In this document: piece after piece, positions 15,665 through 63,832 of the stretch
How the letters are laid out: every line of letters starts with the position of its first letter
Numbering within the stretch: the first letter of the stretch is position 1
From: an uncultured virus (IMG/VR IMGVR_UViG_3300028888_000068)
Lineage: Duplodnaviria > Heunggongvirae > Uroviricota > Caudoviricetes
DNA: 64,000 bases
Virus record (IMG/VR): IMGVR_UViG_3300028888_000068
Direction: 5' to 3' (one strand)
Notes under the pieces: generated by a model
Told to the model about the DNA's origin: nothing
What the model saw: only the letters and a program-made list of their open reading frames with translations
The model's database searches: none
Position numbers and translations under genes: made by a program

Positions 15665-15736
15665 TATTTTTGAGTATTGGTTTTGCTTCGAAAGAATTTT
15701 ATACCCTTTCTTGTGTCGAAATTTGGTATAATTAAT

Positions 15737-15807
15737 AATCTAAGACAGGAATCGAACCTACATCTCTAGATATACATCTAGCGCTCTAACCATTAAGCTA
15801 CTTATCT
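15737..15807 (-). pseudogene. Degenerate tRNA / tRNA-like RNA
   Basis: D-arm TAGCTTAATGGTTAGAGC and T-arm GGTTCGATTCC present, but the anticodon loop is 6 nt and the acceptor stem has 2 mismatches; promoter motif at 15811-15821. Confidence 0.65.
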
Positions 15808-15834
15808 TATCATATATAAGGCATTTAGGTCTTC

Positions 15835-59807: not shown

Positions 59808-60059
59808 ATGAGGCTTAGATTTGCGCTAGTAGAATTTGATAGATTTATTTTTGATAATTTTAAAGATGAAATTCAAGTATATATCAAAAAAGAAGGCACA
59901 GCTTTTTTAGATGTTGAAAAAATTGGAACAAAATATATAGGACGATATCTTTCGGAAGATGGAGTATGGGAAGTTCGGACCCTTTCCAAAGAAGAGTTGT
60001 ATTTGGGTATTCCTATATATTTATCAGAGACTTTTACTAACCTAGTTCCCTATGCTTAA
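59808..60059 (+). CDS. Paralogue-family protein
   Basis: VEFDRFIF...GIPIYLSETFTNL. Confidence 0.65.
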   Translation: MRLRFALVEFDRFIFDNFKDEIQVYIKKEGTAFLDVEKIGTKYIGRYLSEDGVWEVRTLSKEELYLGIPIYLSETFTNLVPYA

Positions 60060-60321
60060 AACAACCCCAGACCCAGGAACAGCAAGGGTAAAGTTTAATT
60101 ATAATCTATATAAAATATTTAAATCAGAAGTTCGTGTTCTTTATTATAAACGAGCTTGGGATGCGTACTGGTGCTACGATATAATTCCATTAGTTAAGAG
60201 TGGAATAACATACAGGGCATATGCAAATAGAGACAATTATAAGTTGGTTATTGATACCAATCTTTATATGTATGTTCCAGATTATTTCTTAGAGCTTTTT
60301 GAAGACCTAGAAGTGACATGA
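60052..60321 (+). CDS. Paralogue-family protein
   Basis: VKFNYNLY...MYVPDYFLELFEDL. Confidence 0.7.
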   Translation: MLKTTPDPGTARVKFNYNLYKIFKSEVRVLYYKRAWDAYWCYDIIPLVKSGITYRAYANRDNYKLVIDTNLYMYVPDYFLELFEDLEVT

Positions 60322-60620
60322 TAGTAGAAGGAATTGCAGTAGAGTTTGATAAGCATATATTCGATACATTTTACACAGAAGATCATCAATGGCCACCTGA
60401 AGTAGAACTATATTCTAAGGATGAAGGAAGACCATTAAGCTGTATCAAAAGAATAGGCTCAAGTTATTTGGCAGTAGAATTAAGATGGGAAAGCGACACT
60501 ATACATACACGACAGCTAGAAGAAAAAGATATTATGATGGTAGTCCCTAGATATCTTATTGATATATTTGATAACTTGAAAATAATTGAAGGTCTTCCCA
60601 TAACTAACTACAGTGTTTAA
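60318..60620 (+). CDS. Paralogue-family protein
   Basis: VEFDKHIF...VVPRYLIDIFDNL. Confidence 0.7.
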   Translation: MIVEGIAVEFDKHIFDTFYTEDHQWPPEVELYSKDEGRPLSCIKRIGSSYLAVELRWESDTIHTRQLEEKDIMMVVPRYLIDIFDNLKIIEGLPITNYSV

Positions 60621-61107: not shown

Positions 61108-62382
61108 ATGATAACAATTGATGATCTCCCAGAAGAAGGAGGAAATTATGCAAAAACCAAAAAAGAGTGGGAAGAAGTAGATCACCTGTATATTCATTAT
61201 TTTTATAAGATAACCAACAATATTAATAATAAATATTATTACGGTATTCATTCTATCCTAAAAGAAGATCCAAAATCAAATGACCTAGTAAATGATGGCT
61301 ATTGGGGTTCTGGTACTGCTATTCATGAGGCTGAAATAAAATATGGGCTTGAAAATTTTACTAAAACCGTTGAAGCAATTTTTTCTACACGAGCCGAAGT
61401 TAGAATTTATGAAGCAGAAATAGTAACGCAGGAATTAGTAGATGATAGAATGTGTTATAATATGGTTCTAGGAGGATGCGAGAGTCCTATATGGCAAGGA
61501 GGATGGATATTAGTTAATTATAGAGATGAAAGTCTAAGAAAAGAAAAAATGTTCAGTATTCCAACAGAAGAATATCAAAGTAACAAAGACAAATATATAA
61601 CCTCTATGTCGGGGCTTATTTCTGTTAATTATCGAGATCCAGAAAAACGACTTCCTAAATTTTTTACAATAAGTTCTGAAGAATATTACAAAAATAAAGA
61701 CCTATATATAACTTCGTTTTCTGATAAAGTAGCCTATAAGAATAAAGAAAACTGGGAAGACGTTAGGTGGCTTAGCTCTGATGATCCATTAGTATTATCT
61801 GGTCAGTTTATAGGGATAACTAAGGGTCTTAAGCAATCTCAAGAAACTATAAACAAAAAGATAGGAGAGAAAAATGGATCTTATGGTAGTTTTTGGGTTA
61901 CTAATGGAAAAGAAAATAAGAAAATAAGCAATCAAGATATTCCTGAGGGTTGGTGGAAGGGGAGAATTATTGATGAGACAAAAATAAAATACTGTTATAT
62001 AAATATAGAAACCGGCGAACATAAATATTTCTTAAAAACTGAGAATCCTGGACATCCTTGGTTTAAAGATTTTATGGTAGACAAAAATTTAGAAGTAATA
62101 ACCATAACCAGATTAGAGGGATATCTAAAGGATGGAAAAACAAAAAAGGAGTTATCAGAAATTTTTGGTATATGTATAAAGTCGGTGGCCAAACTAGTAA
62201 AATATTATATAGGTCTTGGGAAACTTGATAATAAATATTATATACTTAAAAATTCAGTTCGTCATCAGGCTAGTACTAAGTATATGTTTATTAGAGATAA
62301 AAGTACTGGAAAGGTTCGCAGGGTGTTATCTGAACAAGCCAAAAAGTTCCTAAATAATACAGATGCATTTGAAAAGCTTTAA
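61108..62382 (+). mobile_element. Free-standing GIY-YIG (Seg-like) homing endonuclease gene
   Basis: YFYKITNNINNKYYYGIHS...YWGSG...E...YN; NUMOD-like GEKNGSYG and WVTNG; located inside the tRNA cluster. Confidence 0.85.
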
Positions 62383-62410
62383 ATTCCTTATATTTGAAAA
62401 TCATCTTCGT

Positions 62411-62750
62411 GGCTCGATGGTGAAACTGGTAGAATTGTCTGCCTCTCTATAAAGAAATTTATAGAAGATAGGTCCCCTAAACGGTGAAGACTAAACAGAA
62501 ATGCATGTTAATACCGTGGCAAATCCTGAAAAGGATAGTCCGTAGAGAATATACAGGGACAGCCTAAGGGAAATCTAAGGCTAAGATTGATTCCAGACCA
62601 CAAACAAATACGATAGTAAGAGTTGGAACATCTAACATAATACAAAATTTCATGTATTTGGTAGCGAAAACTATAGTGGTCCAAGACACGAGGGACTTAA
62701 AATCCCTTAGCCCGAAGGGGCTGTGGTGGGTTCGATTCCCCCTCGAGCTA
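62411..62750 (+). tRNA. tRNA-Leu(TAA), intron-split (exons 62411-62430 and 62684-62750)
   Basis: Joined exons give GGCTCGATGGTGAAACTGGT|AGACACGAGGGACTTAAAATCCCT...TCGAGCTA with a long variable arm. Confidence 0.88.
62431..62683 (+). mobile_element. Group I intron (no ORF)
   Basis: P1 GGTAGA/TCTGCC with U.G, P3 GTCCC/GGGAC, P4 ACGGT/ACCGT, P7 GAGAAT/ATTCC, P8 AGCCT/AGGCT, P9.0-like ACCAC/GTGGT. Confidence 0.85.
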
Positions 62751-62767
62751 CAATTCAACACAAAATC

Positions 62768-62851
62768 GGACCGGTGGCGAAATTGGCGAGACGCGCTAGT
62801 CTTAGGAACTAGTACATTGATACACTGTGGGTTCAAATCCCACCCGGTCTA
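62768..62851 (+). tRNA. tRNA-Leu(TAG)
   Basis: GGACCGG/CCGGTCT; CTAGT-CTTAGGA-ACTAG; long variable arm. Confidence 0.9.
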
Positions 62852-62884
62852 CAGACCAACCAACTTAACAAAAAACTATTCATG

Positions 62885-62921
62885 CTGCATACCTTTGGAG
62901 GGGTATGCAGCTGTTTTTTTT
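62885..62921 (+). terminator. Rho-independent terminator
   Basis: GCTGCATACC/GGTATGCAGC stem plus a T-run. Confidence 0.8.
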
Positions 62922-62958: not shown

Positions 62959-63189
62959 ATGCCACGAATTTATAGTAAAGATGTAAAACTGACTAGAACA
63001 CAAAAAAGACGTCTACGATATGTTCTTTGTGATTTTATTTGGGGGGATGACCCTACACTAATTAATATAGAACATGATGCAGACAGTGTTAAGCTCACTA
63101 TTCAGATGTCTAATGCAGACTGGGTTAAAACTATGGGAGAGTCGTGGCCCAAAGAAGATATGAGCATTGAAGTAAAACGCCGTAAGTGA
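62959..63189 (+). CDS. Hypothetical protein
   Basis: ORF following a motif variant at ~62936. Confidence 0.6.
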   Translation: MPRIYSKDVKLTRTQKRRLRYVLCDFIWGDDPTLINIEHDADSVKLTIQMSNADWVKTMGESWPKEDMSIEVKRRK

Positions 63190-63539
63190 TGAGAGTATTT
63201 TGGAATAAAGAGTTTTACGAAAAATACAGTAATGTCTTTAATATTCAAGTCTGGGCTATAAAAGAAATTCCAGAGAGCAACGGATATTATTATAATTACT
63301 ATAACTATGGTGATACTACAACTAGGTCTTATATTGTACTCTTAGACCTCTCTTTTAGTTGGTCAGAATCAGACGGAAAACTTACAGCGCTTAACTGGGA
63401 ATCTGGAATTTATGAACACTTTCCAGTAAATACGGTATATATGGAGCTTCCTGATGAACTTAAAGACATATTTCCAGATCTTGAACCGTGGATAGACTAT
63501 AACTTTTCCATGACATTTTCTTCAACTTCAGATATATAG
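63186..63539 (+). CDS. Paralogue-family protein
   Basis: VFWNKEFY...MELPDELKDIFPDL. Confidence 0.7.
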   Translation: MMRVFWNKEFYEKYSNVFNIQVWAIKEIPESNGYYYNYYNYGDTTTRSYIVLLDLSFSWSESDGKLTALNWESGIYEHFPVNTVYMELPDELKDIFPDLEPWIDYNFSMTFSSTSDI

Positions 63540-63541
63540 TT

Positions 63542-63832
63542 GTGGAAAGAATCAAGTATATATATTGGAACCATGACTTATATAAAACATATAGAGGACT
63601 GTTTGATATTCAAGTATTTTATAAGGATGGTCACTACGCTTTGTTGAGAATACCATCTAATCTCAAACAATCCTATAATGAAAAATATTTTAAGGTAGTG
63701 GATCCTAAGGGAATTAATAGAATATATTTGAGTTCTGAAATAATTCTTGGGGTTCCTGAAGAATTATTTAATCTATTTTCTGATCTTAAGCTTATTGATT
63801 TTTCAATATTGATAATAAAAAACAGTATATGA
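63542..63832 (+). CDS. Paralogue-family protein
   Basis: IYWNHDLY...GVPEELFNLFSDL. Confidence 0.7.
   Translation: MERIKYIYWNHDLYKTYRGLFDIQVFYKDGHYALLRIPSNLKQSYNEKYFKVVDPKGINRIYLSSEIILGVPEELFNLFSDLKLIDFSILIIKNSI

Follow-up and report, generated by a model that had tools for sequence, protein, structure and literature searches.

A 64,000-nt stretch of DNA from an uncultured virus of the Caudoviricetes (IMG/VR record IMGVR_UViG_3300028888_000068; hereafter the window) carries the two halves of a tRNA-Leu(UAA) gene, separated within the D-loop by an insert whose last base appears to be A. The locus raises two questions: (i) what kind of element splits this tRNA, and (ii) how the exons could be joined if the terminal base of the element is A. 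The stretch occurs in sequencing runs from sheep and cattle gut, both metagenomes and metatranscriptomes, and four of these runs were examined as contigs, one from DNA (X2) and three from RNA (X5, X9 and X13).

The gene spans 62411-62750 on the plus strand and is interrupted after U20 (62430) by 253 nt (62431-62683). Its 5' exon, GGCTCGATGGTGAAACTGGT, provides a 7-nt acceptor strand, U8, G9, the D-stem strand GUG and the start of the D-loop, AAACUGGU. The 3' exon provides AGA of the D-loop, the D-stem strand CAC, the anticodon arm (UAA), a long variable arm, the T-arm and the acceptor 3' strand; the discriminator is A, and CCA is not encoded in the gene. The break falls between U20 and A20a and the anticodon arm (62691-62707) is intact, so this is not an anticodon-loop insertion. 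ARAGORN calls no tRNA in the unspliced stretch, and calls an 88-base tRNA-Leu(UAA) once 62431-62683 is removed in silico. The spliced D-loop, AAACUGGUAGA, has the form seen in other class-II Leu tRNAs; for comparison, an intact tRNA-Leu(UAA) in GenBank MT840028.1 reads GGTAGACACGAGGGACTTAAAATCCCTT. Rfam cmscan gave a weak tRNA-Sec match at 62661-62751 (25 bits versus a cutoff of 47), which would make the locus a contiguous, odd tRNA. We rejected this reading because the true 3' two-thirds of the tRNA account for most of the score and because 62411-62430 agrees exactly with an acceptor strand and D-stem.

Five other tRNAs in the window are on the ARAGORN list. The tRNA-Leu(UAG) at 62768-62852 is uninterrupted and has GGC/GAGAC in place of the target string (here and below, a slash marks the insertion site or its equivalent). 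At 15736-15808 (minus strand) ARAGORN reports a tRNA with a two-letter anticodon (ta) and no assigned identity, which scores 44.2 bits with the Rfam tRNA model. Small ORFs (83-117 aa) occur in runs at 59808-60620 and 63186-63832 (plus strand), flanking the tRNA cluster; their ends are similar (...F.NL and ...F.DL...), and these ORFs could represent tandem paralogues of one family. A megablast search of GenBank phages with 24 kb of the window returned zero matches, and blastn matches to GenBank phages were confined to tRNA pieces (7 records).

Addressing the first question, several lines of evidence identify the insert as a group I intron (table). An nhmmer profile built solely from 7 anticodon-loop phage tRNA-Leu introns has a sole match in the window, at 62474-62682 (E 1.2e-16). 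The 341-nt stretch folds at -102.6 kcal/mol (z -4.85), a stability equalled by none of 100 shuffles. We aligned 10 sequences and annotated P3, P4, P5, P6, P7, P8, P9.0 and P9 (35 pairs, 7 helices). Standard pairs fill 96.9% of the 350 cells, compared with 31-41% when partners are slid by 1-3 columns. Compensatory changes on both sides occur at 18 of the 35 pairs, and the observed covariation score was reached by none of 500 shuffles. Covarying pairs make up five of five in P3, four of five in P8 and four of six in P9.0; P7 is invariant. A covariance model built from this alignment finds a single copy in the window, and the resulting structure is the P3-P9 core of a group I intron, with its P3/P7 pseudoknot.

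Features of the split tRNA-Leu(UAA) locus and its surroundings (positions in the window)
Feature	Position	Strand	Basis
Free-standing homing-endonuclease gene, 424 aa, GIY-YIG/Seg-like, ending 28 nt upstream of the tRNA	61108-62382	+	phrog match
5' exon, 20 nt: acceptor 5' strand, U8, D-stem 5' strand, D-loop to U20	62411-62430	+	sequence, ARAGORN
P1 hairpin, GGUAGA (62428-62433) with UCUGCC (62438-62443), loop AUUG; U62430.G62441 wobble marks the 5' splice site	62428-62443	+	sequence, fold, relatives
Group I intron, 253 nt, ORF-less	62431-62683	+	alignment, covariation, covariance model, profile match
Internal guide UGUCUGCC; 62436-62440 with 3' exon 62684-62688 (P10), 62441-62443 with 5' exon 62428-62430	62436-62443	+	sequence, relatives
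P2 hairpin, GAAA loop	62444-62468	+	fold
P3 5' strand, partner 62556-62560; 5 of 5 pairs covary	62472-62476	+	covariation
P4 (62482-62486 with 62512-62516) and P5 (62489-62491 with 62507-62509)	62482-62516	+	covariation
P6 (62518-62519 with 62540-62541) with P6a hairpin (62523-62527 with 62532-62536), GAAA loop	62518-62541	+	fold, covariation
P7 5' strand: G62545, bulged A62546, G62547-U62550; partner 62590-62594	62545-62550	+	covariation, invariant in 10 of 10
P3 3' strand	62556-62560	+	covariation
P8 hairpin: 62561-62565 with 62578-62582 plus inner pairs, GAAA loop	62561-62582	+	fold, covariation
J8/7 (AAGAUUG) and P7 3' strand AUUCC (62590-62594)	62583-62594	+	alignment, covariation
P9.0 5' strand GACCAC, partner 62676-62681	62596-62601	+	covariation, relatives
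Variable peripheral insert of the P9 domain	62602-62661	+	contigs, comparison with L133
P9 hairpin UAGC-GAAA-ACUA, one C.A mismatch in the window	62662-62673	+	alignment, covariation
P9.0 3' strand GUGGUC	62676-62681	+	covariation, relatives
Omega position, A; G in 6 of 9 D-loop and 8 of 8 anticodon-loop relatives	62683	+	alignment, contigs
3' exon, 67 nt	62684-62750	+	sequence, ARAGORN

A first-pass annotation of the window had proposed, from its letters alone, much of this structure. Its full group I core interrupting tRNA-Leu after U20 is borne out by the profile match, the covariation and the ARAGORN call after removal. The P1 that it drew, GGTAGA with TCTGCC and a U.G pair at 62430, corresponds to U62430.G62441, and this wobble is shared by all nine D-loop introns described below. 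Its guide TGTCT, said to pair with AGACA at 62684-62688 and to restore GGU/AGACAC, does form a P10 of five Watson-Crick pairs (62684-62688 with 62436-62440). The P7 G-C pair that it described as retained is G62547-C62593; it lies next to bulged A62546 and is invariant in 10 of 10 aligned relatives. By analogy to a standard P7, we take this to be the guanosine-binding pair. The check that it proposed, cmscan with group I models, gave no support: the Rfam model Intron_gpI (RF00028) found nothing over the whole window at its gathering score, or over 62300-62900 at E<=10. Intron_gpI also misses two clear relatives (L005 and L006) at E<=1, and its seeds include none from bacteria (Williams 2020).

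Exact-word scans of IMG/VR with strings from the core of the insert led to real relatives, and a two-part core pattern then retrieved eight loci. All eight split tRNA-Leu(UAA) at CUU/...G/AAAAUCC, the classical anticodon site. The ends of these introns are ACG in seven and AAG in one, and several contain, within their 5' portion, an ORF with an HNH-like motif. A 14-mer scan gave at least 117 stretches, with 3 real among the matches listed. For D-loop copies, IMG/VR scans returned 0 loci with a P1-specific pattern and 12 loci, all chance matches, with a 3'-junction pattern; a scan of GTDB genomes returned one locus, a chance match within ordinary tRNA genes.

Metagenome contigs were scanned for the P9/P9.0 string followed by AGACAC. 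The 21 loci found comprise 13 chance matches, seven tRNA-Leu genes split at the same D-loop position, and a family member at a degenerate tRNA locus (L142), which is excluded from the D-loop counts. At L142 (minus strand), a tRNA-Leu 5' half and an anticodon-loop family intron join the acceptor 3' strand directly, and a complete tRNA-Leu(UAA) comes next; the arrangement suggests a decayed locus next to the gene that replaced it. The survey for D-loop introns that the first-pass annotation had suggested thus yields, with the window included, nine introns on eight contigs, all at GGU/AGAC. In each of the nine, exon GGU is paired to GCC with a U.G and the 3' exon starts AGACA.

The D-loop introns are of two types. 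Six end in G (L135, L140, L148, L151, L152 and L153), with the tails AAG, ACG, ATG, ACG, TTG and ATG before AGACA; their borders are set by U(-1) and omega-G, except that L152 and L153 are ambiguous by 1 nt. Three end in A: the window intron (CCA) and two introns of contig L133, at 1300-1526 (CCA) and 1662-1854 (AAA). The L133 1300-1526 intron is near-identical to that of the window except for a swapped P9 insert. The other is the second D-loop intron of L133, in a neighboring tRNA-Leu(UAG) (L133:1602-1910), at the same GGU/AGAC site and again A-ending (GAGAAA/AGACAAC). It is 70.5% identical to the window intron over 176 aligned columns. Among the 35 core pairs, 22 are the same, 11 are changed on both sides yet still paired, none is changed on one side, and two are unpaired in one of the introns. 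With 11 double changes and no one-sided change, the fold has been maintained across both A-ending lineages. Overall, the insert is a genuine group I intron, and the tRNA site that it occupies is new and recurrent; its P3-P9 core is, as judged from alignment and covariation, homologous to that of the phage tRNA-Leu anticodon-loop introns.

Other family members and variants were seen in passing. L153 (minus strand; ~1530-1640 of the reverse complement) has a D-loop-split tRNA-Leu that holds an extra ~83-nt insert after GGAGGACUU, in the anticodon loop; this is under group I intron size and forms a long hairpin, GACAGUA...UACUGUC. L135, a human-gut contig (minus strand), has three intron-split tRNA genes in 3 kb, all with introns matched by model R1: a tRNA-Lys-like gene (anticodon loop), a tRNA-Leu(UAA) (D-loop) and a second tRNA-Leu (classical site). 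In DNA run X2, a loose end before 62804 shows a relative of the window tRNA-Leu(UAG) with a family intron ending ...GTGGTACG, at the classical site between U34 and A35. A loose end before 62683 in run X13 shows an intron variant reading ...CCAGACATATATGAAAATATATGAGTATCT, then A, then AGACAC, and may be another D-loop intron with A before the exon. The peripheral insert at 62602-62661 is replaced by unrelated sequence in L133 and in strain variants of RNA runs X5 and X9, with the core unchanged; the strain-variant joints are 62607>62654 and 62607>62658, with other letters between.

The second question concerns the last base. In the sisters, which end NNG/AGACAC, P9.0 is followed by a 3-nt tail as in the window, and homology thereby assigns A62683 to the omega position. 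Specifically, exactly 3 nt (NNG) follow a 5-bp P9.0 in 6/6 G-ending D-loop introns and 8/8 anticodon-loop relatives, and CCA of the window occupies the same columns. A62683 therefore stands in a column that holds G in 14 relatives, and the intron could end in G only if both splice sites moved by 2. In the window, just two bases, C62682 and A62683, lie between P9.0 and the 3' exon. Across the 17 family introns that were aligned or tabulated, G and A are the only bases in the omega column; no pyrimidine occurs there. Contigs that cover 62683 were found in all four runs (X2 record 8, spanning 62300-62713, from DNA; X5 record 17, X13 record 2 and X9 record 26 from RNA). All have A at this position, without variation. 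As the runs come from four samples, we exclude the sequencing error for which the first-pass annotation had wanted the reads checked. L133, an independent assembly, has the same CCA end.

AGA is present at both borders, so four registers give an identical tRNA, the joint is ambiguous by 3 nt, and omega-A does not follow from the sequence of the junction by itself. Just two registers retain a canonical base on one of the borders: U62430 with omega A62683, or G62432 with omega G62685. The first-pass annotation had named A62683 as the last intron base and argued that use of G62685 would delete 2 nt from the D-loop. The homology column agrees with its placement of the last base, but the junction is not unique, and a concerted shift of both sites by 2, which deletes nothing, had been overlooked. 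The deleted product is not the form found joined in RNA (below). That product, with U62430 joined to A62686, is still called tRNA-Leu by ARAGORN, but we set it aside given this difference.

With both sites shifted by 2, the 5' exon would end at G62432 (paired with C62439), omega would be G62685, and the mature tRNA would be the same. Such a shift would fit the AGA at both borders and the 3-letter ambiguity of the joint. The AGA start and the guide UCU, exactly the changes that it would require, are found in 3/3 A-ending and 0/6 G-ending introns, and the guide and ligated exons form 8 contiguous bp whatever the register. The cleavage pair, however, would become a G-C with the purine on the exon strand. 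Among 5292 tRNA introns this has no counterpart: 98.5% combine U(-1) with G(omega), and there is a small C(-1) class (Williams 2020). Moreover, the U.G remains third in P1 in all nine D-loop introns, and this P1 runs into P2 with no linker in between; the helix around the reactive phosphate thus keeps its geometry. The shift would also lengthen the tail after P9.0 to 5 nt, versus 3 nt in 14/14 G-ending relatives, and would leave 62683 unconstrained, yet this base is A in all A-type copies and G in all others. We consider the shifted register unlikely, and less likely than the omega-A register; the 5' splice site is likely after U62430, with A62683 as omega.

Joined exons were sought in the contigs. 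One contig of RNA run X9 (depth 13.8) has the joint 62430>62684, which skips 253 nt (ends AG..CA) and is the predicted exon junction; its shorter side is 25 letters, and 3 letters fit either side. The joint is absent from contigs of DNA run X2 and RNA runs X5 and X13. The likeness threshold was 90%, and joints with a side below 30 in this range often stem from other organisms. In addition, a contig may derive from DNA carried over into an RNA library as well as from RNA, and the X9 joint could therefore stem from an intron-less allele. The 25-letter side exceeds the 20-nt exon, and the joined form therefore reaches 5 nt into the leader of this locus. RNA contigs of two studies (X5 record 16 and X9 record 24) end at 62433, where the DNA contig continues; 62433 is the last base common to spliced and unspliced forms, and these breaks are a weak hint of splicing. 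Since one contig with a short side is all that shows the joined form, the RNA evidence of correct exon joining is suggestive only. Two adapter-flanked contig ends, at 62429 in X13 and at 62597 in X9, agree with neither model of an excised intron and were set aside, and differences in depth between contigs were not taken as a measure.

Alternatively, the change from G to A may block or cripple exon ligation, leaving the tRNA gene dead or nearly so, and the joined contig may come from an intron-less allele of a related phage. The single contig with its short side would fit this, and intron-less alleles do circulate: an intron-less form of the second tRNA of L133 occurs in a contig of run X13 (loose end at 62766). 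The phage also carries further Leu tRNAs, and UUA and UUG make up only 25% of its Leu codons. Several observations speak against a crippled intron. Core pairing has been kept through the 11 double changes between the A-ending lineages, and exons and core are near-identical between the window and L133 although an upstream flank is 79% identical. The joined contig enters the leader of this very locus by 5 nt, and the RNA contigs break at 62433 in two studies. Overall, we judge a crippled intron improbable, to a degree similar to the shifted register.

The weakest alternative, which we regard as very improbable, is a ribozyme that only cuts, by guanosine at the 5' site and by hydrolysis at the 3' site, with the nick in the D-loop sealed by an RNA ligase of phage or host. 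As a general point, omega-A should weaken the second step. Against this, P10 and P9.0 are maintained and even strengthened, which is sensible only for a ribozyme that aligns the 3' exon on its own, and omega-A is reported to lower 3' splice-site hydrolysis (PMC8146996).

The reading that we favor, and think likely, is a working group I intron that splits the tRNA-Leu(UAA) of a rumen phage in the D-loop, with a core homologous to the anticodon-site introns and with A at omega. Points against it are the lack of an Intron_gpI match, the single joined contig with its short side, the four registers that give one product, the unchanged G-specific P7 pair and the small number of A-ending lineages.

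How might such an intron splice? Its P1 and guide sequence are fitted to the D-loop. In the precursor fold, exon GGU (62428-62430) would pair with GCC (62441-62443), and free guanosine, bound at the P7 pair G62547-C62593, would attack after U62430. P10 (AGACA with UGUCU) and P9.0 (GACCAC with GUGGUC) would then position the 3' splice site for attack by the 3'-OH of U62430 after A62683, yielding a tRNA whose D-loop, AAACUGGUAGA, is of the canonical class-II form. The terminal A would sit in a pocket still built for G. From mutant studies of the Tetrahymena intron, such a P7 pocket is said to prefer G, and an omega A should reportedly slow exon ligation strongly. P10 has 5, 5 and 4 Watson-Crick pairs in the A-type introns, compared with 3, 1, 1, 1, 4 and 4 in the G-type, and a sixth P9.0 pair is present in 3/3 A-type and 1/6 G-type introns (a G.U). 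A stronger P10 and a longer P9.0 may compensate for a weaker omega contact. We treat this as a lead and not a result, since the A-type introns represent two diverged lineages, perhaps of one origin, and very few events.

With G18, G19 and U20 tied up in P1, the tRNA elbow should be unable to form before splicing, and the intron would then work without the folded tRNA body on which anticodon-loop introns sit. More speculatively, these A-ending introns may belong to a phage ribozyme lineage that ligates exons with omega A in a G pocket, offset by P10 and P9.0, and that works without a folded tRNA body and gates tRNA maturation. We offer this broader proposal tentatively, as one that could well be wrong.

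The locus also has features of a mobile element. The ORF at 61108-62382 matches a homing endonuclease family (phrog_314, E 1.3e-18), with a weak match to the SegE GIY-YIG domain that falls below the cutoff (E 0.0021). In L133 the same slot is occupied by an unrelated HNH endonuclease (phrog_10822, E 7.8e-48). The segment with tRNA and intron is 88.5% identical between the window and L133, the core being near-identical outside the replaced P9 insert, whereas a segment ~1.4 kb upstream is only 79% identical. This pattern fits a mobile cassette, and the endonuclease is probably linked to the spread of the locus. The arrangement resembles collaborative (trans) homing of cyanophage psbA, in which, according to a 2014 review (PMC3984707), an ORF-less intron is accompanied by a free-standing homing endonuclease adjoining the interrupted gene. 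The interrupted cyanophage gene codes for a protein; here it is a tRNA, and the putative pairing of intron and endonuclease is supported by adjacency and family.

Compared with known systems, the nearest counterparts of the intron core are in tRNA-Leu. Williams (2020) defined 21 classes of tRNA group I introns, all in the anticodon loop, which was the sole place searched, in addition to introns in the T-loop of tmRNA. This agrees with the statement of the first-pass annotation that bacterial tRNA group I introns are known from the anticodon loop, and introns are reported in the anticodon loop only in PMC5733544. According to the 2014 review (PMC3984707), the phage introns known at that time were all in protein genes, although phages have many tRNA genes. 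Our literature search found no published group I intron in the D-loop or D-arm of a tRNA.

Anticodon-site tRNA-Leu(UAA) introns (Leu.3Ug of Williams 2020; cyanobacteria, plastids and the phage loci L125-L132) have a P3-P9 core homologous to that of the window intron and the same J8/7-P7 string. They also share the P9 GAAA hairpin, P9.0, a tRNA-Leu host gene and a short, 3-bp exon part of P1. Leu.3Ug introns insert between U34 and A35, in contrast to insertion after U20 in the D-loop; P1 and P2 are different, the last base is G rather than A, and several phage copies have an HNH-like ORF whereas the window intron is ORF-less. The subgroup of the Leu.3Ug introns is presumably IC3. Closer still are the six G-ending D-loop sisters, which share the GGU/AGACA site, the P1 with U.G and GCC, P9.0 and the 3-nt tail. 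They differ in ending with G, in a guide of UUU or UAU versus UCU in the window, and in that most are larger (283-528 nt); the literature search found no published description of them.

An omega-A is rare but precedented. The hexacoral mitochondrial ND5-717 intron, as described in PMC8146996, is a natural group I intron with A as its last base whose exons are ligated in vivo. That intron lies in a mitochondrial protein gene and has a huge P8 insert with two genes; we liken it to the window intron for its omega-A. Among tRNA-like folds, the tmRNA T-loop is the sole place other than the anticodon loop with a published group I site (Williams 2020); it belongs to a different molecule and is a different loop.

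The recurrence of the D-loop site, with nine copies, widens the places where annotation must look; neither the tRNA nor its intron was called by ARAGORN or Rfam. Because the guide captures the elbow-building G18, G19 and U20 in the D-loop, splicing and tRNA folding must be ordered. Finally, sisters that share a site and an unchanged guanosine pocket but end in either G or A are a matched pair supplied by nature, which would allow a test of what the terminal G contributes to exon ligation and of what may replace it.
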